In this document: piece after piece, positions 253 through 15,014 of the stretch
Layout of the letters: the number at the start of each line of letters is the position of its first letter
Numbering within the stretch: the first letter of the stretch is position 1
Origin: a virus
Lineage: Duplodnaviria > Caudoviricetes
Virus record (IMG/VR): IMGVR_UViG_3300037424_001954
Span: 1-30,911 of that record
Strand: one strand, 5' to 3'
DNA length: 30,911 nucleotides
Position numbers and translations under genes: made by a program
The notes under the pieces: model-generated
Databases searched by the model: none
Seen by the model: only the letters and a program-made list of their open reading frames with translations
What the model was told of the DNA's origin: nothing

Positions 253-594
253 ATGACCGGAGCTGAGATCATCGCCGCGGAGCGACAACGGCAAATCGAG
301 GAAGAGGGGTGGTCGCCTGAACACGATGACGAGCACGGGCGCGGACAACTTGCCCGTGCTGCTGAAAACTATGTCCGGTTTGCGGCAGAACCCGATGTCG
401 CACGGGATTACCAGAGAAAAAACGGGCATACCCCTGGTGGGTGGCCGTGGCACTGGAGCTGGTGGAAGCCGAGCCAAGGGAGTACCTCGGCCGACCGTAT
501 CCGGGACCTGGCAAAGGCTGGTGCGCTGGTCGCCGCAGAAATTGACCGGCTGCAACGGGGAGAAGAGCGCGGCTTTTTAGTGGCACAGGGCTAA
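253..594 (+). CDS. Phage accessory protein (cassette ORF), 'AAERQRQIEEEGWSPEHDD...WPW..WWKP...L.KAGAL..AEIDRL' family
   Basis: ATG 253 follows GAGGAG; the motif is a recurrent phage hypothetical domain; the stop TAA is supplied by the attC core. Confidence 0.8.
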   Translation: MTGAEIIAAERQRQIEEEGWSPEHDDEHGRGQLARAAENYVRFAAEPDVARDYQRKNGHTPGGWPWHWSWWKPSQGSTSADRIRDLAKAGALVAAEIDRLQRGEERGFLVAQG

Positions 595-647
595 CGCTTG
601 AGGTCAAGGGCTCGCGTAGCGAGTCCGCTTGCAGCGATTTGTTAAGC
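589..647 (-). other. attC site (59 bp, classic 59-base element)
   Basis: Minus strand: GCTTAAC AAATCGCTGCAAGCGGACTCGCTACGCGAGCCCTTGACCTCAAGC GTTAGCC; resembles aadA-type attC ending TCAAGCGTTAG. Confidence 0.9.
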
Positions 648-664
648 CACCGATGGAGGAACTG

Positions 665-1054
665 ATGGAACAAAACCCTTGTGACGCCTGCCGGAATGCG
701 GATTGTGCAAAGCTGATCAACCCCTGTACTGATCGATTGTGGTTTGCTCACACACAACTTCGATGGATACCGGTTTCAGAAATGCTGCCAGTGAGCGGCC
801 GAAAGGTCATCTCTTTTTATCGAAACGATAACGGCAAGCCCCGCCGGATAATGGCGTATCACGCTGACCCGTTTTCCATCGAAAGCGACGATGATGACCA
901 GCATGAAGCGTTCGAGTACAGCGAAGAAAATGATCAATATTATTTGCGCGAAGGATGGTACGAAAACAACGAGTTCGATGATGTCAACTGGTGTGTTTCC
1001 GGCTGCATTACGCACTGGATGGAGTTGCCACCGCCGCCCGTTGAGGTGGCTTAA
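665..1054 (+). CDS. DUF551-like phage protein (cassette ORF)
   Basis: RWIPVSEMLP...ITHWMELPPPP motif; GGAGGA RBS before ATG 665; stop TAA lies in the attC core. Confidence 0.8.
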   Translation: MEQNPCDACRNADCAKLINPCTDRLWFAHTQLRWIPVSEMLPVSGRKVISFYRNDNGKPRRIMAYHADPFSIESDDDDQHEAFEYSEENDQYYLREGWYENNEFDDVNWCVSGCITHWMELPPPPVEVA

Positions 1055-1106
1055 CGCTTGAGATCAGCCGCCCGTCTTTTGGGTCGGCTGGAGCGATTGG
1101 TTCACT
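1049..1106 (-). other. attC site (58 bp)
   Basis: Minus strand: AGTGAAC CAATCGCTCCAGCCGACCCAAAAGACGGGCGGCTGATCTCAAGC GTTAAGC. Confidence 0.88.
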
Positions 1107-1152: not shown

Positions 1153-1752
1153 GTGAGAATATTGGTAGGCTGCGAGGAAAATGGCAAGACGCGGGACGCA
1201 TTTGCTGCTCTTGGGCATGACGCATGGAGTTGTGATCTTCTGCCGTCGCGCAGGCTAGGTAATCACCTGCAAATGGACATCTTCCGGGCACTAATAAAAC
1301 ACGGGCCGTGGGACGTGGTTATCCTGCACCCTGATTGTACAAAGCTGACCGTTGCTGGAAATCGCTGGTACGGCGAGGGGACGGCGGGCTACCCGTACCG
1401 CATTGCGGCGATGGAATGGACGGCGATGCTGTGGAACGTAGCGAAGATGATCGCCCGCGTAGGCGTGGCTCTGGAAAACCCGGTGGGCGTACTCGGCAAG
1501 ACACCGATGGGGAAGCCGAGCCAGTACATACACCCGTGGCAATTCGGCCACGGCGAGACGAAGAAAACCTGCCTCTGGCTGCACAACCTGCCGCCACTGG
1601 CGGCGACGAAGATCGTTGAAGGCCGGGAACAGCGGATTTGGAAAATGCCGCCAAGCGAGGACCGCAAGCGGTTGCGAAGCGAGACTTACGACGGGTGGTC
1701 CGAAGCGATGGCCGCGCAATGGGGCAGATACGCCGAGCAGGTAGCGGCTTGA
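1153..1752 (+). CDS. Phage DNA cytosine (C5) methyltransferase-like protein (cassette ORF nearest attI)
   Basis: MRILVGCEE..., AWSCDLLP, HPDCT (PC-like catalytic motif) and ENPVG motifs typical of short phage C5-MTase-like proteins; GGAGGA RBS with GTG start. Confidence 0.72.
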   Translation: MRILVGCEENGKTRDAFAALGHDAWSCDLLPSRRLGNHLQMDIFRALIKHGPWDVVILHPDCTKLTVAGNRWYGEGTAGYPYRIAAMEWTAMLWNVAKMIARVGVALENPVGVLGKTPMGKPSQYIHPWQFGHGETKKTCLWLHNLPPLAATKIVEGREQRIWKMPPSEDRKRLRSETYDGWSEAMAAQWGRYAEQVAA

Positions 1753-1784: not shown

Positions 1785-1821
1785 AGTGAACAATGATTCT
1801 ACCGCTTAAATGCGGCCTATC
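1785..1821 (-). other. attI candidate 1
   Basis: Minus-strand core GTTCACT (1785-1791) complements the AGTGAAC of the first attC. There is no attC hairpin on the intI side; instead a 30-bp block is repeated exactly at 8494-8523. Position just 5' of intI is canonical for attI. Confidence 0.75.
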
Positions 1822-1863: not shown

Positions 1864-2865
1864 ATGAACACGGCACCGTCCGGGCAACCCCCGCATTCGA
1901 CTGAGCAGCACAAACCGAAGGTGCTGGACCTGATCCGCAACCACTGCCGGGTGAAGCATCTGAGCGACAAGACCGCGGCCACCTATTGCGGGTGGGTGCG
2001 GCGCTTCAGTCTGTTTCACCACAAGCGGCCGCTCTCGGCCATGGGGACGCCGGAGATCGAGGAGTTCCTCACCCACCTGGCCACGGGGCACAACGTGGCG
2101 GCCTCGACGCAGAATCAGGCCTTCAACGCCCTGCTCTTCCTCTACACCCACGTCATCCCCAAGGATCTGGGCAAGATCGACGCCATCCGCGCCAAGAAGC
2201 CGAAGCGGCTGCCGGCGGTCTTCACCCGGGCCGAGGTGGCGGCGGTGCTGGGGAATCTCTTCGGCACCGAGAAGCTGATGGGGCTGCTGCTCTACGGCTG
2301 TGGCCTGCGGCTGAACGAGTGCTTGGCGCTGCGGGTGAAAGACATCGATTTCGACCGGCAGACAGTGACGGTGATGGAGGGCAAGGGGAACAAGGACCGG
2401 GTGGTGATGCTGCCGCAGTCGGCCGCCGAGCTGCTGCGGGCGCACCTGGCGCGGGTGGCCGAGCTGCACCGGCAGGACGCTGCCAACCATATCGGCGTCT
2501 CGCTGCCGGGCGCCCTGGAGAAGAAATATCCCTCGGCGCCGTTTGCCTGGCCGTGGTACTGGGTTTTCCCGGCTCGCAAGGTCTGCACGGACCCGCGCTG
2601 GGCGCTGGAGCGGCCGAAGCGGCACCACATCCACGAGACGGTGCTGCAGAAGGCGATGAAGGCGGCGATCGGCAAGGCGCAGGTGGCCAAGCACGCCGGC
2701 TGCCACACGCTGCGGCACAGCTTCGCGACGCATCTGCTCGAGGACGGCTACGACATCCGCACGGTGCAGGAGCTGTTGGGGCATGCCGACGTGCGCACTA
2801 CGATGATTTACACCCACGTGATGGGCAAGGGCTGCAGCGTGAAGAGTCCGGCGGATCGGCTCTGA
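1864..2865 (+). CDS. intI: Integron integrase (tyrosine recombinase)
   Basis: STQNQAFNALLFLY, GLRLNE, GKGNKDR, integron-specific insertion (ALEKKYP...WPWYWVFPA...RHHIHE), HTLRHSFATH, VQELLGH, TTMIYTHV; catalytic R-K-H-R-H-Y intact; AAGGAG RBS. Confidence 0.95.
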   Translation: MNTAPSGQPPHSTEQHKPKVLDLIRNHCRVKHLSDKTAATYCGWVRRFSLFHHKRPLSAMGTPEIEEFLTHLATGHNVAASTQNQAFNALLFLYTHVIPKDLGKIDAIRAKKPKRLPAVFTRAEVAAVLGNLFGTEKLMGLLLYGCGLRLNECLALRVKDIDFDRQTVTVMEGKGNKDRVVMLPQSAAELLRAHLARVAELHRQDAANHIGVSLPGALEKKYPSAPFAWPWYWVFPARKVCTDPRWALERPKRHHIHETVLQKAMKAAIGKAQVAKHAGCHTLRHSFATHLLEDGYDIRTVQELLGHADVRTTMIYTHVMGKGCSVKSPADRL

Positions 2866-2902: not shown

Positions 2903-5900
2903 ATGACCGACGACTTCCAGCGCGTCAAAAGCGCCCTCTCCATCCACAACGTGATCACCGGCCAGACGGCCCTGGCGATCAACGCCGCCGGCCACCTGGA
3001 ACACTGCCCCTTCTGCTCACACAAGGACTGCTTTTCCATCCCGAAGGGGAAGGAGTTCTTCAAGTGCCACAGCTGCGATCGCGGCGGCGACGTCTTCACC
3101 TTTTTGCAAGAGCTGCACAGCCTGGACCAGGCGGGCGCCCTGAAAATGGCGGCGGAGCTGGCGAACATCGCCCTGGACGAGCGCAAGGAGAAGCGCGGGC
3201 CGCGCCTGACGGTGGTGGACAAGATACGCCTTGCGGCCGCCGAGTACTATCACGGCCACATGCTGGAGAACGGCGGCAAGGCGTATTTTCTGGAGAAGCG
3301 CGGGCACAGCCTGGAGACGGCGCAGAAGGAGAAGCTGGGCTGGAGCGACGGCCACCTGCTGGACCACCTGCGCACCCAGGGCTTTGAGCAGAAAGACATT
3401 CTGGAGAGCGGCCTGGTGCGGGAGAAGGAGATCGAGGGCGGCACGCGCCTGCTCGACTTTTTCGGCAAAGGCCTGGCGATCTTCCCCCACTACGCCGGCG
3501 GCCGGGTGCTGCATTTTACCCAGAAGGACGCCCGGGAGGTGCCGAAGGAGGAGAAGCTCAAGTACCAGCTGCCCAACGATAAGCGGGACAAGCGCTGGTC
3601 GTTCTACGGGCAGGACGCCCTGGAGCGCTTCGAGGAGATCATCCTCGTCGAGGGGGAGAATGACCGGCTGCAGGTGCTGAACGCCGGCCCCTTCGGCGTG
3701 ATGGGGATGATCGGCCAGATCAGCGACGATCAGCTCAAGGCGCTCTCCTCCCGCGGCCGGGGCAAGCATCTTTATCTGTGGATGGACAACGACGAGGCGG
3801 GCGTCAAGTACATCCGCAAAATCTGCCGCTCGCTGCCGGCGGAGATGGTGGTCAAGGTGATCGCCTACGGCAAGCCGGGGGACGATCCGGATTCATATCT
3901 CAAGGCCTTCGAGGGGGACCGCAAGCGCGAGGTGCGCCGGCTGCAGCTGGAGTCGGTGGATTACATCAGCTGGGAGATCGCCCAGGGGGCCAATCTGCCC
4001 AACCTCGAGGAGAAGCTGCGCCACCTGCAGGCGCCGGGCAAGGACGAGAAGGGCAACGTCTTCCGGCTGATCGGCCGGCAGCCGGCGATTCAGCAGGACA
4101 TTTTTAAGGAGAAGCTGCTGGCCCTGGGCTTTAGCGAGAAGGCGGTGGAACAGCAGTTGGATTTCAGCGCCGATCTCTACAAGCAGATCAGCGACCACCT
4201 GGGGATGCTGGACAACCCGAAGGACGCCGACCCGATCGTGCTGGGCGAAATCTGCTTCAAGTTCTTCGCCCACCACGGCCGCTTCTATTTCGACCGGGAA
4301 AACCGGGTCTGGCTGATTTATCAGAATCGCACCTACGAGGTGGGCAACGATGTGGCCTTCAACTCGCTGATGTTGAAGATGACCCGGATGATCTACAGCA
4401 AGGCGCCGGGGGCGCAGGTCTGGGACGCGCTGAAGCATACGGCGTACCTGAACGGCCGGCAGATCAACCTCTGCCAGTGGATCCACACGGACGTGGTGAA
4501 GGATACCATCTACCTAAACCTGAACAGCTCGGGCAACATCATCCTGAAGGTCTCGAAGGACCGGGTGGAGGAAATCCAGAACGGGATGAACGACGATCAC
4601 GTGCTGCTTTCCTCGAGCCACAAGATCCATCCCATGACCTGGCTGCCGGACGTGGACGTCCAGGAGGGAATGCTGGCGCTGAAGACGCTGATCTTCGACA
4701 ACCTGACGGTGAAGAAGGAGCAGAAGTATTTGATTCTGGCCTGGCTGATCTCGGGCTTTTGTCCGGACATGGCGCCGTACCAGTTCCTGATGAAGTTCGC
4801 CGGCTATGCCTCCAGCGGTAAATCGACGGCCTCGAAGCTGATCACGGCCCTGGTGTACGGCAGCGAGCAACTCAGCGACCCGTCGGGGGCGGCGGCGTTT
4901 TCCTCGGCGGCGAAGAACCCGATCCTGGTCATCGACAACCTGGAGAACAAAGACCTGACCCGCGGCATGCAGAAGTTCCTGCTGCTGGCGGCGACGCGCG
5001 GCCAGAAAGAGAAGCGGGCGGCGGGGACGGATACCGACACGGTGGACGAGAGCCCGCGGGCGCTGATCAACGTGACGGCGATCGAGCCGTTCACGCTTTC
5101 GGAGCTGATCAGCCGGACCTTCGAGATCACCTTCGATCGGCGAGTCTTTGGCTCGGACGACTTCCACGAGTCGGAGGTGCTCGAGCAAATCAAGAAAAAG
5201 CGGGACCTGATCCTCTCGGCGCTGGTGCGCTTCATCCAGCGGGAGATTCTGCCCCACCTGGACCAGCGCAAGGAGTACATGACCATCCTGAACAAGTCCT
5301 TCAAGGGGCATGCGAAGGACCGCACCAACGCCTACCTGGCGCTACTGATGCTGATTCTCTCGAGGATGCTGAAGTACATCCCGCATTATGGCCCGGAGGA
5401 TCTGCTCTACGGCCTGGAGACGGGGGAGCCGGACATCTACCGAGCCTGGATCGAGGAGCAGAACTCGGCGGCGAAGGAGACGGAGATCGGCAGCAATAAC
5501 ATCCTGCAGCTGCTGGGCGGCCTGATGCGCGAGTATCTGCAGTGGTTCAAGGGGAAGAGCCTGACGGCAGGCCCGGTGACCGGGTATGACGAGCCGATGT
5601 TCGTCCTGGAGCATCCGGAGTATGGCCTGACGGTGCTGAAGAGCGCGCCGGGGATCTACTGCTCGGTCTGCTCGCAGCAGGCCGAGGCCTGCGCCTGTGG
5701 CGGTGAGCGCTACACGCGGTCGACCATGGAGTTCGAGGCGACCAGCGCGGAGATCGTCGACGCCTTCGACCGCTACGCTAAGCTGACGGGCAAGCGCAAT
5801 CCCTATGATAGTGCGGCGGTGTTCGGGGCCCGGCTGCGTAATGACCTGGGGCTGCTCAAGAAGGACGGCTGGGAGGTGATCACCAAGGAGGGGATCGAGC

Positions 5901-5962
5901 CGTACTACCGGCGCGTGCAGGGCAAGCGCTTTCTCAAGTTCCGTTACACGGTGATCCGGTAG
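2903..5962 (+). CDS. Phage primase-helicase (CHC2-type Zn finger + Toprim + P-loop NTPase)
   Basis: CPFC...CHSC Zn finger, VEGEND and MDNDEAG Toprim motifs, Walker A GYASSGKST, Walker B ILVIDN. Confidence 0.88.
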   Translation: MTDDFQRVKSALSIHNVITGQTALAINAAGHLEHCPFCSHKDCFSIPKGKEFFKCHSCDRGGDVFTFLQELHSLDQAGALKMAAELANIALDERKEKRGPRLTVVDKIRLAAAEYYHGHMLENGGKAYFLEKRGHSLETAQKEKLGWSDGHLLDHLRTQGFEQKDILESGLVREKEIEGGTRLLDFFGKGLAIFPHYAGGRVLHFTQKDAREVPKEEKLKYQLPNDKRDKRWSFYGQDALERFEEIILVEGENDRLQVLNAGPFGVMGMIGQISDDQLKALSSRGRGKHLYLWMDNDEAGVKYIRKICRSLPAEMVVKVIAYGKPGDDPDSYLKAFEGDRKREVRRLQLESVDYISWEIAQGANLPNLEEKLRHLQAPGKDEKGNVFRLIGRQPAIQQDIFKEKLLALGFSEKAVEQQLDFSADLYKQISDHLGMLDNPKDADPIVLGEICFKFFAHHGRFYFDRENRVWLIYQNRTYEVGNDVAFNSLMLKMTRMIYSKAPGAQVWDALKHTAYLNGRQINLCQWIHTDVVKDTIYLNLNSSGNIILKVSKDRVEEIQNGMNDDHVLLSSSHKIHPMTWLPDVDVQEGMLALKTLIFDNLTVKKEQKYLILAWLISGFCPDMAPYQFLMKFAGYASSGKSTASKLITALVYGSEQLSDPSGAAAFSSAAKNPILVIDNLENKDLTRGMQKFLLLAATRGQKEKRAAGTDTDTVDESPRALINVTAIEPFTLSELISRTFEITFDRRVFGSDDFHESEVLEQIKKKRDLILSALVRFIQREILPHLDQRKEYMTILNKSFKGHAKDRTNAYLALLMLILSRMLKYIPHYGPEDLLYGLETGEPDIYRAWIEEQNSAAKETEIGSNNILQLLGGLMREYLQWFKGKSLTAGPVTGYDEPMFVLEHPEYGLTVLKSAPGIYCSVCSQQAEACACGGERYTRSTMEFEATSAEIVDAFDRYAKLTGKRNPYDSAAVFGARLRNDLGLLKKDGWEVITKEGIEPYYRRVQGKRFLKFRYTVIR

Positions 5963-6275
5963 CAAGTCTCCAAACCGGTTGCAAGTGGTTGCAAGTCTCC
6001 CCTGGAAGGGGAGCATCTGAGGCGAAATTAGAGCCTCAGGCCCTTTTAATAAGCTCTGCCGCGCGCAGGGGGCGCATTTTTCAGAACTTGCAACCTTGCT
6101 ACTAAATTAAGTTAAATAGTTGATTTTATTATAGTTATGTTGGTTGCAAGTCCGGTTGCAAGTTGGTTGCAAGTTGGTTGCAAGTTGGTTGCAAGTCTCG
6201 GCGGGTTTTGGAACTTGCAACCAAGCGCAAAGCCAGCAACCATGCGGGTTTGAGGGGTAAAGTAGCAAGGTTGCA
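5958..6275. repeat. Iteron cluster, probable phage replication origin
   Basis: GGTTGCAAGT at 5977, 5987, 6142, 6154, 6165, 6176, 6187; inverted copies at 6086 and 6213; variant GGTAGCAAGT at 5958; AT-rich core ~6101-6141; 15-bp inverted repeat 6089-6103/6261-6275. Confidence 0.8.
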
Positions 6276-6284
6276 GCTTGAAAA

Positions 6285-6997: not shown

Positions 6998-7975
6998 ATG
7001 AGTCTCGACAGCCTGTTTTTCGATTGGATGGAGTTCCTGCAGATTCAGAAAGGGCACCGGCCCCGCGGCGTGCTCCAGTATGAGCGAGTGATCCGCTCCT
7101 TCTTTCACTGGCTGGAGGGGCAAGGGAAAGAGATCAACCCGGGCCGGGTAACGCGGGAGGTGATCGGCGAGTGGCTGCGGGATCTCTTCTACGAGCAGGG
7201 CAACATCTCCAACCGCTCCCGGGCCTCGAAACTCTCGGCTCTGCGCTCCTTCTTCGGTTATCTGAAATATGTCGGCTTGATCGCCGCCGACCCGACCAAG
7301 GGCATCCCGTCGCCGAAGATCCAGCCGTCGCTGCCGCAAAAATTCAGCACCGAGGAGCTGCGCATGCTTTTCTCCGCGCCGGCGCGGGACACCACCCAGG
7401 GACTTCGCGACCTGGCCATCCTCAAGACGCTCTACGCTTCGGGCCTGCGCGTCAGCGAGCTGGTGAGCCTCGATTGTGCGCACCTGGTCGACACCGGCGG
7501 GTACATCCGCCTGCAGGTGATGGACGGCAACGCCAAGGGCGGCAAGGGCCGCACCCTGACCCTGCGTACCAATCCATCAAAGACGCTGCGGGAATGGCTG
7601 TTGCTGCGCCGGGAGATGGGCGTCGCCGACGATGCCCTGTTCGTTGCCCTGCGGGCGGGCAGGGGCCGGCGGCTCTCCGAGAGGTCAATCCTCAACGTGA
7701 TCAAAAAATATGCCGCCACGGTCGGAATCGACAGAGCCGATGCCTTCTGCCACAAAATGCGCTCCACCTTCGCCACCGATCTTTACGACAGCGGCCACGA
7801 TAAATGCAGCCGCTGCGGACACCCGGTGCAGTACGTCGGCCTGATCGAGTTGGCTGTGCTGATGGGGCACGAGGATGTCAAAACCACCATGGGTTACGTC
7901 GCTATTTCCGAGAGGACGCTCCGGAGGACGGCGATTCCCGATAAGCGTTTTAATGAAATCGAACAGGAGGATTGA
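6998..7975 (+). CDS. XerC/D-like tyrosine recombinase
   Basis: SAM-like N-terminal domain (SRASKLSALRSFFGYL), GLRVSEL, KGGKGR, HKMRSTFAT, LMGH, TTMGY; ATG 6998 follows a G-rich RBS. Confidence 0.88.
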   Translation: MSLDSLFFDWMEFLQIQKGHRPRGVLQYERVIRSFFHWLEGQGKEINPGRVTREVIGEWLRDLFYEQGNISNRSRASKLSALRSFFGYLKYVGLIAADPTKGIPSPKIQPSLPQKFSTEELRMLFSAPARDTTQGLRDLAILKTLYASGLRVSELVSLDCAHLVDTGGYIRLQVMDGNAKGGKGRTLTLRTNPSKTLREWLLLRREMGVADDALFVALRAGRGRRLSERSILNVIKKYAATVGIDRADAFCHKMRSTFATDLYDSGHDKCSRCGHPVQYVGLIELAVLMGHEDVKTTMGYVAISERTLRRTAIPDKRFNEIEQED

Positions 7976-8241
7976 TGACCAGGAGCGACAACGCGGAGGT
8001 GGTGGAGCAGCTCTTCGACCGGTTGCATGGCGAATTCGGACGGCTGGCGCCGCAGATCATCCAGGTAATCACCGAGATGGTGGGTCGAACTCGGGTGACC
8101 TTTCCAGGCCTCGACGACCTTTACCGGGCCGAGAGGAATAAGCGGATCCGGAAGGAGTTCACCGGCGCGAACTATGAGGAGCTGGCGATCAAGTACCGCC
8201 TGCGAGTGCGCCAGGTGCGGCGGGTGATTCGGCATGGGTAA
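7972..8241 (+). CDS. Mor/C-family transcription activator (late-gene activator)
   Basis: GRTRVTFP...ERNKRIRKEFTGANYEELAIKYRLRVRQVRRVI matches the Mor family HTH pattern; overlaps the recombinase stop. Confidence 0.85.
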   Translation: MMTRSDNAEVVEQLFDRLHGEFGRLAPQIIQVITEMVGRTRVTFPGLDDLYRAERNKRIRKEFTGANYEELAIKYRLRVRQVRRVIRHG

Positions 8242-8292
8242 CGACTGACTTCAGCCGCGAGCGGAGCGAGTCCGCTGGAAGGATTGTTATGC
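8236..8292 (-). other. attC site (57 bp) overlapping the Mor stop codon
   Basis: Minus strand: GCATAAC AATCCTTCCAGCGGACTCGCTCCGCTCGCGGCTGAAGTCAGTC GTTACCC; shares GCGAGTCCGCT (+ strand) with the attC at 589-647. Confidence 0.85.
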
Positions 8293-8495
8293 CAAAAACC
8301 AAATGCCCAGGGTCAAAACAAAAGCCCCGGGTTGAATTCCCAGACACCGTGACCAGACGGTTCACTGATGGAGGGCATTCGCATCAAAGCGTTATCCACC
8401 ACTGCCCCGCTGGATGTGGCCGTGGATGGGGCCGCAATAACCGGGAAAACGGCTGGCCAGATTTGCCAATTCCTGTCCATTTCGTAGAGGCATAA
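8289..8495 (+). CDS. Small Cys/His-containing hypothetical protein (lone cassette ORF)
   Basis: 68-aa ORF filling the interval between GTTATGCC (8286) and GGCATAA (8489-8495) exactly; RBS-like GGAAGGA lies inside the attC. Confidence 0.65.
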   Translation: MPKTKCPGSKQKPRVEFPDTVTRRFTDGGHSHQSVIHHCPAGCGRGWGRNNRENGWPDLPIPVHFVEA

Positions 8496-8523
8496 TGATT
8501 CTACCGCTTAAATGCGGCCTATC
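8489..8523 (-). other. attI candidate 2 (core lacks AAC)
   Basis: AATGATTCTACCGCTTAAATGCGGCCTATC (8494-8523) is identical to 1792-1821 and abuts the cassette end GGCAT. Confidence 0.7.
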
Positions 8524-8543
8524 CCCGGAGCGTGGAAATGATT

Positions 8544-8586
8544 TAGTGTCCTCCCCTGCCAGATCATGACCTTGTTTTCTGATAAT
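8544..8586 (+). promoter_or_regulatory. Putative late promoter / Mor-type activator site 1
   Basis: 31-bp motif 8544-8574 matches 13586-13616 at 30/31 positions; followed by GATAAT (8581-8586); upstream of the terminase operon. Confidence 0.65.
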
Positions 8587-8633
8587 CAGCCCTCTATGGC
8601 GTGGAAAAGCATCCACCCTGGAGGGCTTTTTTC

Positions 8634-9464
8634 ATGGACATTCAGGATAAACAGACCGCCCTGCGGCTGATCCCGTCGCAAAAGGAAGACCTCAAGCGCC
8701 GCATCGATGCCGGCGAAAGGGGGCTGGCCGACGAGCTGGAGCATCTTATGTCGCTGGAGGCGCGCCTGCGCACGGCGATCGAGACGGCCGACGAGGACGA
8801 GCCCGACCCGGTCATGGAGCGCCTGCGGGTCAAGCGCAGCTACACCATGACGCCGGCCGCCCTGGAGCAGCGTCTGGCCGCCTCCGCAAAATCGACGGGG
8901 CCGACCACCGAGGAGGGCAAGGCCCGCTGCAGCGGCAACGCCTGGAAGCACGGGCTGCATGCCAAGAAGCGTCTGCTCGGCCTCGGCAAACCCTGCAAGA
9001 GCACCTGCCAGAAATACCCCTGCTCCCTGGTCGATGAGGGCGACGTCTCGCCCGGCGGCAACTGCATCGACAAGGAATACTTCCTCACCACTCTGAACGC
9101 CCTCTCCAGCGCCATGCAGGCCGGCGACCTCACCGACCTCAAGCACGTGGTCACCCTGCAGCTCGGCGGGACCCTGCAGGTGATCGACGAGCTGCAGGCC
9201 TCGATCCTCGAGTATGGCGTCTATATGAAGTCCGAGAAGATCGACAAGGATGGCAAGGTGACCGGCTACGAAATCAAGCCCAACCCGTCGCTGCTTCCGC
9301 TCTCCAACCTGCTTAAGGCCGCCGGCGTCACCATGCCCGACTTCATGGTCACCCCGGCCGCCGTCGAGAAGATCAAGACCGACAAGGAGACCGTCGACAC
9401 CCTGGCCGACATCTTCCGCGGCGCCGGCAACGCGCTGGCCCAGGCGAAGAAGAAGAAGGCCTGA
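8634..9464 (+). CDS. Probable terminase small subunit
   Basis: Directly upstream of terL; STGPTTEEGKARCSGNAWKHG motif; C-terminal 'EIKPNPSL' segment; Cys cluster. Confidence 0.6.
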   Translation: MDIQDKQTALRLIPSQKEDLKRRIDAGERGLADELEHLMSLEARLRTAIETADEDEPDPVMERLRVKRSYTMTPAALEQRLAASAKSTGPTTEEGKARCSGNAWKHGLHAKKRLLGLGKPCKSTCQKYPCSLVDEGDVSPGGNCIDKEYFLTTLNALSSAMQAGDLTDLKHVVTLQLGGTLQVIDELQASILEYGVYMKSEKIDKDGKVTGYEIKPNPSLLPLSNLLKAAGVTMPDFMVTPAAVEKIKTDKETVDTLADIFRGAGNALAQAKKKKA

Positions 9465-9468
9465 GCGG

Positions 9469-11271
9469 ATGCTGATGCAGCCCCTGGAATCGTCCGAGGA
9501 TTTGAAAAAAGGCATCATCGTGCCGGCCGAGATTTTCGACCGCACCCTGCGCGAGCTCGACTGGACCTGGCACCAGGCCGCCCGCGGCGAGCTGCCGCCG
9601 CCCTTCACCTCGCTGCAGGAGTTCCAGCTGGCCATCATCTGCGCCGATCCGCTGCTGTGGTGCACGGCTTTTCTGCGCGAGCCGACCGATCCCGACCACA
9701 AGGATCCTTACTCCTTCTTCGAATACCAGCTGGAATCGTTGCGCTGCGACACCTCGGTGGTGCACCAGGACGGCGCCGAGGTCGGCAAGACCCGCGAGAT
9801 CGTCGCCTGGAGCCTGTGGAAGAGCTTCACCTGTCCCAATGGCTCGGGCCTGATCGGCGCGCCGCTGCAGATCCACCTAGACGAGATCATCGACGCCAAG
9901 CTCGACCAGCTGCACACCTTCAATCCCAGCCTCGGCAAGAGCCTGGTCAAGCACAAGAAACAACCCTACACCCAATTCACCTACGCCAACCGGTTCAAGG
10001 AGGACTTCCGCCCGGCCGGTTTCGACGGCAACGCCTACCGCGGCGTGCATGCCGAGACCTACGGCATTGTCGACGAGGCGGCCAAGAAGAAGAACAAGCC
10101 GCAGTGGACCGAGTTCTGGCGCTCTCTCAAGCCGTCGGCCTCGGCCCGCATCTACTCGGTGCCGGACGGCGACCGGGAAAGCGGCTACTACAAGCTGACC
10201 ATGCGCGCCGGCGGCAAGGCGGCCGACGGGGACAAGGCAATCGTCGGCGACAATTACGCCTGGACGCTCTTCCGCTGGGGCAAGGATCTGATGCCGCCGC
10301 CGTTCTGGACTCCGGAGCGCCGGCGCTTCTATATCGACCAGTACGGCGGCGAGGACTCCCCCGGCTTCCGGCACAACGTTCTGGGCGAGCACGGCGACCC
10401 GGAGAACACCGTCTTCCCCTGGCACCAGTTCCGCCTCTGCATCAAGGACGTCCCCGAATACCGGGCGCTCAAAGTGCTGGTCGACGCCGCCCGGGACACC
10501 GTCACCGTCGAGGGCTACAGCTGCCTCTACGAGTTGGGCGGCGAAGGGCCGATCCCGAAACACCAGATCCTCCTCGAGGAGGTTTTCAGCGCCGCCCAGC
10601 TTTTTGCGGTGGACAGCGAAAATAACAGCCAGTTCAAAGCCCTGATCCGTTCCTTCTTCGTGGCGGTACCTGGGGCCAAGCGCGGCGGCGGCGACTTCGG
10701 TTTTTCCCAGGACCCGACCGAGATCTACGCCAAGAACATTATCGGCAAGCGCGAGCGGCTCGTTGCCCGGCTGCAGCTCAAGCAAGTCACCTACGACCAG
10801 CAATGTCAGGCGATAGACGCCATGGACGATATGTACGGCCCGGCTGAGTCGCTGGTCTGGGGGACGGACTTCGGCAACGCCGGCAGCGCCATCGCTCATG
10901 ACCTGCAGGGGCTTTCCCAGTACGCGGACAAGAACTATGACGACCGGCTCAAGGGCTTCATGTTCCAGTCGACCACCGACAACGTCGACGACCAGGGCGA
11001 GCCGATCACCGACGCCAAGACCGGCAAGCCGGCGAAGATCACTCTGAAGGAGCTGGCCACCGATCTGCTGGTCAAGAAGATGCAGCGCCAACTGCTCGAA
11101 TACCCGCCGGATCAGGACATCATCCTCGCCTACACCAACCACACCTGCCGCATCGGCGAGCGGCAGCGCATCTACAACAAGGAAAACGACCACCTCATCG
11201 ATGCCGACCGGGCGCAGCAGCTCGCCGGCGTGCTGGGGAACGACGTGGAGGATCTGTTCGACTGCGGGTAG
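9469..11271 (+). CDS. terL: Terminase large subunit
   Basis: P-loop-like AEVGKTRE, Walker B GIVDEAA, RNase H-like nuclease motifs GGDFGFSQDPT and DHLIDA; lies before the portal. Confidence 0.85.
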   Translation: MLMQPLESSEDLKKGIIVPAEIFDRTLRELDWTWHQAARGELPPPFTSLQEFQLAIICADPLLWCTAFLREPTDPDHKDPYSFFEYQLESLRCDTSVVHQDGAEVGKTREIVAWSLWKSFTCPNGSGLIGAPLQIHLDEIIDAKLDQLHTFNPSLGKSLVKHKKQPYTQFTYANRFKEDFRPAGFDGNAYRGVHAETYGIVDEAAKKKNKPQWTEFWRSLKPSASARIYSVPDGDRESGYYKLTMRAGGKAADGDKAIVGDNYAWTLFRWGKDLMPPPFWTPERRRFYIDQYGGEDSPGFRHNVLGEHGDPENTVFPWHQFRLCIKDVPEYRALKVLVDAARDTVTVEGYSCLYELGGEGPIPKHQILLEEVFSAAQLFAVDSENNSQFKALIRSFFVAVPGAKRGGGDFGFSQDPTEIYAKNIIGKRERLVARLQLKQVTYDQQCQAIDAMDDMYGPAESLVWGTDFGNAGSAIAHDLQGLSQYADKNYDDRLKGFMFQSTTDNVDDQGEPITDAKTGKPAKITLKELATDLLVKKMQRQLLEYPPDQDIILAYTNHTCRIGERQRIYNKENDHLIDADRAQQLAGVLGNDVEDLFDCG

Positions 11272-13585: not shown

Positions 13586-13628
13586 TAGTGTCATCCCCTG
13601 CCAGATCATGACCTTGAATTTTGGTAAC
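13586..13628 (+). promoter_or_regulatory. Putative late promoter / Mor-type activator site 2
   Basis: TAGTGTCATCCCCTGCCAGATCATGACCTTG with GTCAT-N13-ATGAC dyad; upstream of the protease-capsid operon. Confidence 0.65.
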
Positions 13629-13903: not shown

Positions 13904-15014
13904 CGCCCTCCGCCAGAAGGTTTTCGGCCTGAAGATGGCCGCCGGCTCCGGCGCCGAAGTCTCGCCGGAGATGCTGGAGAAAATCAACCGCTTCGCCCTG
14001 ACGCCGCTCACGGCCGAAGATGTCTACGTGCGCAAGCTGCTGTTGGCGCACAACTGCATCGACCGGGACAACGAGCGCTTCCCGGACGAGATGCTCGGCC
14101 AGTTCGCCGCGACCATCGTCGGCAAGTCGTTGCTGGTCGGTCACAACCGTAAGGAGACCGGCACCGGCCTCTTCTTCGACGCCTCGACCGAGGCGATGAC
14201 GCCCGAGCAGTTCACCACGCTCACCAGCGAGAAGTGCCGCCTGCCCGAGGGGATGACCGGCGTCAAGGCGCTGTGGGCCTGGTTCTACACCCTCAAGACG
14301 GCGAGCAGCGAGGAATGGCTCAAGTGGATCGACGGCGGCATCACCCGCCACTGCTCGATCGGCTTCGCCGCAGCCGGTCTCAACCCCATCCGCAAGGACC
14401 CCAACGGCCCCGCCCTCTACTGGGAGTACACCACCCCGGGCGAGGCCCTCGAAGGATCGCTCGTTTGGCTCGGCGCGCAGCACGGCGCCACCGCCCAGAA
14501 GGCCGCTAAGGCATCCCACCAGGACAAAGGAGACAGAGAGATGAAGAAACTGCTGGCACTGCTCGGCGGAATTCTGGGTAAGAGTTTCGCCGACGACACC
14601 ACCGATGAGCAGGCGGTCGAGGCCGTCAAGGGCGCCATCAAGGCCAAGGAGGACGAGGTCCGCGCCGAGCTCAAGACCGCCGTCGAGGACGGCAAGGCGT
14701 TCCGCAAGTCGCTGGTCGACGATGCGGTGAAATTCGGCGCCCTGATCGACGAGGTGCCGACCGACGCCGACGCGCAGAAGAAGGAGGCCGACTTCCTCAC
14801 CGGCCTGCCGATCGACCGCCTGAAGCTGCTGCGCGACAAGTACGAGACCCGCGCCCGGGAGAAATTCCCCACCCACGCCGTCTTCGCCGGCAAGGATCAG
14901 GGCAACCGCGAGAAGCGCGGCGAGCAGGGCAAGGAGAAGACCAAAACGGCCACCGGCAAGAAGGACTTCACCGACCCGGCGCACAACGAGCTGTTCGGCA
15001 CCGTTGGGCGGTAG
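13896..15014 (+). CDS. Prohead maturation protease with C-terminal scaffold domain
   Basis: IDRDNERF, LLVGHN, CSIGF and EGSLVWLGAQ motifs of HK97-type proteases; charged helical C-terminus with an internal RBS/ATG (MKKLL). Confidence 0.75.
   Translation: MPDALRQKVFGLKMAAGSGAEVSPEMLEKINRFALTPLTAEDVYVRKLLLAHNCIDRDNERFPDEMLGQFAATIVGKSLLVGHNRKETGTGLFFDASTEAMTPEQFTTLTSEKCRLPEGMTGVKALWAWFYTLKTASSEEWLKWIDGGITRHCSIGFAAAGLNPIRKDPNGPALYWEYTTPGEALEGSLVWLGAQHGATAQKAAKASHQDKGDREMKKLLALLGGILGKSFADDTTDEQAVEAVKGAIKAKEDEVRAELKTAVEDGKAFRKSLVDDAVKFGALIDEVPTDADAQKKEADFLTGLPIDRLKLLRDKYETRAREKFPTHAVFAGKDQGNREKRGEQGKEKTKTATGKKDFTDPAHNELFGTVGR

Follow-up and report, generated by a model that had tools for sequence, protein, structure and literature searches.

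An exact 30-bp copy of an attI-type site heads a cassette behind the late activator gene of an integron-carrying phage

The window analysed here is one whole phage contig of 30,911 bases. It carries, in order, three cassette genes, the integron integrase gene intI, the genes of a primase, an Xer-like recombinase and a Mor activator, and then the head and tail genes (Table 1). IntI scored 401.4 bits against TIGR02249 (curated cut-off 265), and its residues 24–333 aligned to PDB 2A3V with an E value of 5.6e-78, the IntI-specific insertion region included. The catalytic R, K, HxxR, H and Y motifs are present, as read from this alignment. The Xer-like recombinase is not an IntI: it reached only 51 bits against TIGR02249, and XerC/D-type models scored best; near position 7528 it has a two-residue insertion that is missing in four relatives and in a contig from run X8. 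Relatives were gathered with the first late gene as anchor, and 7/10 of their loci are labelled Geobacteraceae, Desulfuromonadales or Deltaproteobacteria, which hints at a host in this group.

Table 1. Coordinates of the features discussed, with the evidence for each
Feature	Position	Strand	Evidence or remark
Array-1 attC, long type, weak score	121..205	-	13.2 bits, E 0.39; X1 contigs stop after AAC at 127
Cassette gene, phage protein of unknown function	253..594	+	9 PHROG families
Array-1 attC	589..647	-	29.1 bits, E 1.6e-5; outside training set
Cassette gene, DUF551 protein	665..1054	+	Pfam PF04448, E 4.8e-9
Array-1 attC	1049..1106	-	Model R1 21.9 bits (untrained on it); model R2 37.6 bits (trained on it)
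DNA methyltransferase gene, array-1 first cassette	1153..1752	+	phrog_757, E 1.5e-57; cassette ends complementary
attI copy 1 (crossover triplet 1789-1791 plus 30-mer)	1789..1821	-	Homologous motif in related phages
Integron integrase IntI, intact	1864..2865	+	TIGR02249; PDB 2A3V alignment
Phage primase, between the two attI sites	2903..5962	+	Pfam and PHROG matches
Xer-like tyrosine recombinase	6998..7975	+	XerC/D-type models score best
Mor-family late activator	7975..8241	+	PF08765, E 1.7e-11; stop codon overlaps attC core
Site-2 attC; plus strand holds RBS-like GGAAGGA and ATG	8236..8292	-	26.7 bits, E 7e-5
68-aa cassette gene, small Cys/His family without Pfam name	8289..8495	+	11 homologue matches
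attI copy 2, exact 30-bp copy, crossover triplet missing	8494..8523	-	Same 30-mer in L089
23-bp remnant resembling a second mor 3' tail	8524..8546	+	Comparison with L001, L047, L050, L058
Conserved late-promoter-like block	8547..8633	+	Conserved ahead of first late gene in relatives; putative promoter role
First late gene, small-terminase-like by position only	8634..9464	+	No family in Pfam, NCBIfam or PHROGs; anchor for relatives

Three further features of the window were recorded. A 23-bp exact repeat (8552-8574 and 13594-13616), inside a longer conserved block, stands ahead of both the first late gene and a second late operon, and the pair is likely to represent two Mor-dependent promoters. 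Past the primase, at 6088-6276, tandem 11-bp repeats and inverted copies flank an AT-rich core, and this region looks like a replication origin. The 600-aa gene at 9469-11271 has 69% identity to its counterparts in the relatives L001 and L002, against 91-98% for its neighbours, and reads as a swapped module.

The preliminary description of this DNA had drawn attention to a 30-mer said to occur exactly twice, each time directly after a cassette end. This held. The 30-mer matches at 1792-1821 and 8494-8523 and nowhere else in the window, even with up to three mismatches allowed, and it gave no match in 100 shuffles; the chance expectation for such an exact 30-bp pair is about 4e-9. At both copies a cassette end directly precedes it. 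Copy 1 stands 42 bp upstream of intI and copy 2 110 bp upstream of the first late gene. Copy 2 is an integrase-less attI copy, 6.7 kb from the early-region integron and between mor and the late promoter. The attI and attC sites are on the minus strand; the cassette genes are encoded on the opposite, plus strand. The exact 30-mer had no match in the viral contigs, where a degenerate form occurs at three loci, each adjoining intI; among 141 collected loci the degenerate form was found in four, and the 30-mer was absent from three further records searched. Metagenome and genome collections were scanned by protein rather than by the 30-mer, and further carriers of copy 2 may be missed there.

Copy 1 is the cassette entry point of the intact IntI. 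It is a non-hairpin site adjoining the divergent intI, it ends in a GTT crossover, and a homologous motif stands before intI in related phage integrons. Position 1789 is where contigs from three of the four runs compared (X1, X3 and X8) start to match the window. Those of X1 break off directly behind AAC, at 127 and again at 1791, yet are continuous through site 2. Different cassette neighbours in those populations fit the breaks at 127, 1789 and 1791, a hint of cassette shuffling in the source population. With IntI beside copy 1 and genotypes diverging at its AAC, the proposal that the 30-mer is attI-type DNA is borne out. An accessory direct repeat, DR1-like by analogy, is present upstream of the attI core. 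At −29 to −31 from the crossover, read on the cassette strand, G[AT]T was found in 18 of 27 phage attI candidates, compared with a mean of 3.8 and a maximum of 10 for other three-base windows; the 27 anchors were chosen by eye and include close pairs. The outer edge of the duplicated 30-bp segment is the G of this conserved distal box.

The cassettes of the window are arranged back to front. All four cassette genes with database homologues lie opposite to the attC strand, against the canonical orientation of gene towards attC. They face the integrase and point away from where Pc would read, so that a Pc promoter would not be expected to drive them; no sigma-70 match was found in 8150-8700. Some cassette genes have homologues that are ordinary genes of phage operons, which suggests that the cassettes package phage early genes: one stands in an ordinary phage operon in L156 (4001-4162), and L003 holds a homologue of the 253..594 gene at 2245-2535, with no integron there.

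The attC sites were located with home-made covariance models built from other loci. Over the whole window six matches had E values of 5 or less; 1049-1106, 589-647 and 8236-8292 ranked highest, and the last two were scored by a model trained without them. Model R1 alone missed the site at 8236-8292, and a strict hand-written attC pattern scan missed every attC of the window, so the covariance models were used instead. The single cassette placed earlier on the Mor stop codon is indeed there: the core AAC of the site-2 attC (8240-8242) overlaps the stop codon (8239-8241) of a gene assigned to the Mor family by Pfam. The attC also supplies, as read directly from the sequence, the RBS-like GGAAGGA (8277-8283), 5 nt upstream of an ATG at 8289 that belongs to the core GTTATG. 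The plus-strand fold of this attC pairs AAC with GTT at −7.7 kcal/mol (z −0.54), no better than shuffles.

The 68-aa ORF of the site-2 cassette runs from core to core, with its start in one and its stop in the other. A full HMMER search gave 11 matches at E<=0.001 (best 3e-12, 48% identity), while a word-index search found no homologue. Six homologues of 52-125 aa were aligned, five long low-identity matches being excluded, and H37, C39, C43, W47, N50, G55, W56, P62 and H64 are invariant in the seven aligned sequences. Third-position GC of the ORF is 0.51, compared with 0.81-0.91 in the flanking core genes. With these homologues the ORF is a real gene. A 55-aa ORF on the minus strand (8313-8480), which would have the canonical orientation, was set aside because the plus-strand ORF is the one with homologues.

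At copy 2 the AAC crossover triplet, which a working attI requires, is missing, as had been noted. The X1 contig over 6167-10000 has no differing letters and no gaps relative to the window and carries the same 3-bp loss, which is thus present in a second assembly; X1 could, however, be the very data from which the window came, and rare variants are lost in contigs. A misassembly is disfavoured, on the basis of contigs rather than reads. No intact GTT triplet was seen at copy 2, the triplet being absent in the window and GTC in L089, the other carrier of the copy. An ATT triplet precedes the crossover of this attI, and the junction in the window is what a join after the A of ATT, instead of after the G of GTT, would give. 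What remains of the core begins with A and is 3 bp nearer to the left box. The loss could have arisen by excision of a former first cassette in an attI x attC reaction that was out of register, with the cut at ATT before GTT, or alternatively by slippage at the ATT/GTT tandem. Insertion is disfavoured as its cause, because three bases would then remain at the attC end, where they are absent. According to the accessible part of PMC2811028, attI1 with an ATT triplet recombines at 3.4e-3 of wild type and attI1 with GTC at the wild-type level. Given this low value, and a core that starts with A and is shifted by 3 bp, copy 2 of the window is likely to be inactive, and the loss probably fixes the cassette in place. 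The term 'locked', used for this copy before, has its limits: the intact attC could still enter attC x attC or attC x secondary-site reactions.

Next we compared the junction between mor and the late genes in close relatives. In L001 and L002 the mor stop leads straight to the promoter block, and attC, cassette and 30-mer are all absent; an X8 contig shows the same join without insert. Since close relatives lack attC, cassette and 30-mer alike, the copy-2 insert is best described as a lineage-specific inserted platform and not as a fixed second platform of the phage family. The main idea of the earlier description is largely right, in that the copy is attI-type DNA and cassettes vary behind it; one IntI may serve both copies. 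The predicted empty allele, a bare attI on the mor stop, was not found in the viral-contig searches or the relatives examined; the cassette-free L001, L002/L088 (L088 appears to be the same contig as L002) and the X8 contig are without the 30-mer too. The 23-bp remnant likewise had no match in viral contigs.

A different cassette at site 2 was found in L089. This contig has the identical 30-mer ahead of the same late promoter, with 108/110 bases identical down to the late gene. In the late gene itself 692/735 bases are identical (94% at the nucleotide level), which makes L089 a distinct genotype. Its first cassette differs, containing two unrelated small ORFs with an attC at the end (one that was in the training set), and such a change of first cassette requires a crossover at attI. 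The cassette at this position thus does vary among relatives, whereas a lack of such variation had been named as grounds for refuting the earlier reading. Cassette exchange at site 2 rests on L089, a single 1507-bp contig that stops short of mor; a deletion or misassembly across the 30-bp repeat could have linked array 1 to the late genes in this contig. The single relative found for the L089 cassette protein is an ordinary phage operon gene, with no attC in the 600 bases inspected, and does not place the L089 array. On these data site 2 would work like a second attI served in trans.

The shortness of L089 and its lack of mor leave room for a more passive history, in which a piece of array 1 (attI edge, first cassette and attC) was copied once into the mor end and was never an entry site, L089 being a deletion or misassembly. 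The non-canonical triplet in both known copies 2 and the mor-like tail on both sides of the insert would agree with this, as would the length of the copy: 30 bp is less than half of the 65-bp attI1 (PMC12901181, part available), and optimal recombination needs the full attI1, according to the portion of PMC3518468 at hand. However, beyond the 30-mer the flank of L089 matches the window and is unlike that of the cassette-free L088, which shares its assembly prefix; a genome with copy 2 must therefore exist there regardless. A random copy is, moreover, not expected to stop at the conserved distal box, and partial attI sites down to −11 recombine with IntI1 (PMC12901181, same part). We regard a never-active fragment as rather unlikely.

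The position of the 30-mer, 42 bp before intI at site 1 and 110 bp before the first late gene at site 2, also raised the possibility that it is a promoter or operator of intI and of the late genes, with cassette adjacency incidental. In favour of this, the 30-mer includes an inverted repeat of small size (z between about −2.3 and −2.5), and in some relatives the plus-strand reading of the distal box is similar to a −10 hexamer. But the late promoter block is intact in relatives without the 30-mer, the absence of sigma-70 matches around site 2 speaks against such a role, and variation begins exactly at the AAC edge of the 30-mer at site 1 and likewise at site 2. As an explanation of the duplicated sequence this is scarcely credible, whereas a promoter role at site 1 could be compatible with an attI role.

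More widely in the family, 45 loci were scanned, of which 33, near duplicates among them, hold mor and the first late gene. Most of these 33 have no attC in the interval between the two genes; three do at E<0.05 (L084, L132 and L135), and intI lies within the interval in two (L132 and L138, the best attC of L138 reaching only 12.5 bits). The mor/late junction is a family hot spot, with arrays or whole integrons in other members. In L132 (7000-9890) and L138 (7600-9300) complete integrons stand between mor and the late promoter, with the cassettes back to front. L084 has an attC array there (8139-9930) that ends in an attC-like hairpin with no attI shown; several of its attCs are long and contain the start of the next gene, and with four attC matches and no IntI above cut-off in a 42-kb record that is 87% complete it classes as a CALIN. 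L135 (4800-6310), together with L151, represents a prophage in which intI and its array occupy the early site; a second array lies remote from it, and the head of this one differs in sequence and carries a GTT repeat of its own at −28. It was rejected as a second case of identical attI copies because this head is unlike the attI beside its intI. Other inserts occupy the same junction in L003 (8575-9910), which has no integron in its early region, and in L033 (12024-13365), where the start of the promoter block is present on both sides; by eye only, their content is Rha/antirepressor-like and RadC-like. In L020 (9282-9459) and L023 (9122-9233) a second copy of the first cassette's tail lies further down the array, as expected after cassette duplication. 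Finally, L006 carries a duplicated attI-intI unit in one phage (5690-6603 and 8984-10059), with the first integrase cut short.

The order mor, cassettes, attI, intI, late promoter in L132 and L138 would suit a history in which a complete integron once stood between mor and the late promoter, and intI was then deleted or moved to the early region, leaving attI and one cassette. The duplicated unit of L006, with one intI truncated and an attI close to that of the window, could be read in the same way. Against this, no intI remnant follows copy 2, just 23 bp separating it from the promoter block; the IntIs of L132 and L138 are 40-41% identical to that of the window, and their attI differs; and the two copies, being perfectly identical, suggest that site 1 was copied recently. 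We therefore think it very unlikely that site 2 is the residue of an integron.

We consider it probable that this phage has a native early integron and acquired a second attI by off-target IntI recombination, that cassettes were exchanged there in trans, and that the slot was closed by the 3-bp loss. That the copy stops precisely at the conserved distal box, 30 bp away from the crossover, points to an off-target integrase reaction, and both edges of the insert fall on integrase-type triplets. Copy 2 would be the product of IntI crossover at two triplets, the GAT in the distal repeat box and a GTT on the mor stop codon. By one route (A), a unit of attI plus cassette would be excised at the distal box and then reinserted on the mor stop. 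By the other (B), attI would recombine with the mor stop of a second genome to give a cointegrate that duplicates the segment from intI to mor, after which the duplicate would be deleted from the distal box to the mor tail. Route B would explain why the 23 bases past the 30-mer resemble a second mor tail: eight consecutive bases of the remnant recur at the end of mor in L001, and the remnant, like mor in L047, L050 and L058, terminates in TAG ahead of the promoter block. The duplicated attI-intI unit of L006, with one truncated integrase, offers a parallel for this route. The same IntI would later have exchanged cassettes at copy 2 in trans, and the back-to-front genes may be read from the xer-mor transcript, with attC supplying the RBS and start codon and no Pc promoter involved.

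Published activities of IntI1 make such reactions plausible in kind. IntI1 inserts at GWT genome sites and excises at nearby non-att sites (bioRxiv 10.1101/2022.09.11.507474, available section), it recombines secondary sites with each other (bioRxiv 10.1101/2022.04.29.490043, likewise in part), and attI1 has accessory direct repeats (DR1) like the distal box (excerpts of PMC12901181 and PMC3518468). Two observations count against a clean origin of this type: the outer junction has two C more than a clean crossover into an L001-type mor tail would give, and the edges match the right-hand attG motif, as given in the part of the published account available, at only 3/4 and 2/4 bases. Mu-like transposition was set aside as the origin, since none of 28 scanned proteins matched a transposase.

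Two attI sites with one IntI in a phage are already known. In the Shewanella prophage vB_SspM_M16-3 (MZ568829), an integron and a remote CALIN each start with the same attI (Qi et al. 2023, PMC9892861, part available), and on checking the sequence we found two exact 28-mers, at 14594 and 38588. Like the window, M16-3 combines a single intI with two attI cores of identical sequence, and the second core stands among phage genes at the head of cassettes of its own. It differs in that its attI copies share about 100 bp of diverged sequence, compared with exactly 30 bp here, and that its genes lie on the cassette strand, whereas those here are back to front. M16-3 has an IntI of the Shewanella chromosomal type and is itself described as inactive in PMC9892861, the cargo here being of phage type; here, unlike in M16-3, relatives show presence, absence and exchange of the insert. 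KX853513 (Virus Rctr41k) has an IntI-like gene annotated xerD at 4686-5639, which is absent from the PMC9892861 tables that were available. A CALIN requires at least two attC without a nearby integrase, two being the number set by Qi et al. (PMC9892861, same part), and site 2, with one attC, falls outside this class.

The delta-attI cassettes of class 1 and 2 integrons are a second comparison. They carry a partial attI remote from intI, for which an unusual crossover inside attI was proposed, and they recombine with IntI1; the partial attI replaces attC behind the gene inside an array and mostly keeps 8-12 bases (PMC12901181, as far as available). Copy 2 keeps 30 bases, joins the phage backbone and heads an array, and with a partial attI that borders the backbone and heads a cassette it is not of this kind. 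A lone cassette whose attC core lies on a GTT at the end of an ordinary gene is also seen in attG insertions (bioRxiv 10.1101/2022.09.11.507474, available section), but these carry no attI along, whereas here an exact attI copy heads the cassette. With classical integrons (IntI1/attI1; Vibrio IntIA, PDB 2A3V) the window shares the IntI family, an intI divergent from attI, putative attC hairpins and a direct repeat of R-like type that lies some 30 bp from the crossover (in attI1, DR1; PMC12901181 and PMC3518468, both in part); it differs from them in cassette genes that face the integrase, probably out of reach of Pc, and in two entry sites. The literature searched, which leaves most subscription journals outside, yielded no description of phage cassettes arranged back to front, nor of an attI copy that is cut at the accessory repeat. 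Three features appear to be new here: the minimal 30-bp attI copy, the reversed orientation of the cassette genes and a junction at which other family members have arrays or whole integrons.

A textbook integron has one attI, and orphan arrays (CALINs) or orphan attI sites are usually ascribed to loss of the integrase gene. The present locus offers a recent case, exact to the base, in which close relatives show all three states: without insert, with one cassette and with another. With both edges on integrase-type triplets, the idea that IntI copies its own attI becomes testable with short synthetic sites, and the 30 bp are a candidate minimal attI for a phage IntI group. A broader reading, which we put forward tentatively and do not yet favour, is that the integrase propagates the site at which it docks: an off-target crossover at the accessory repeat of attI would release a minimal attI of 30 bp, from which a working platform could start elsewhere, and the family would keep slots in two transcription units, closable by out-of-register reactions. 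If this is true, the two units would be the early operon and the one behind the late activator, with back-to-front cassettes read by phage transcripts. The locus also suggests a use of integrons by phages beyond the carriage of host cassettes, namely the reshuffling of small genes of their own.
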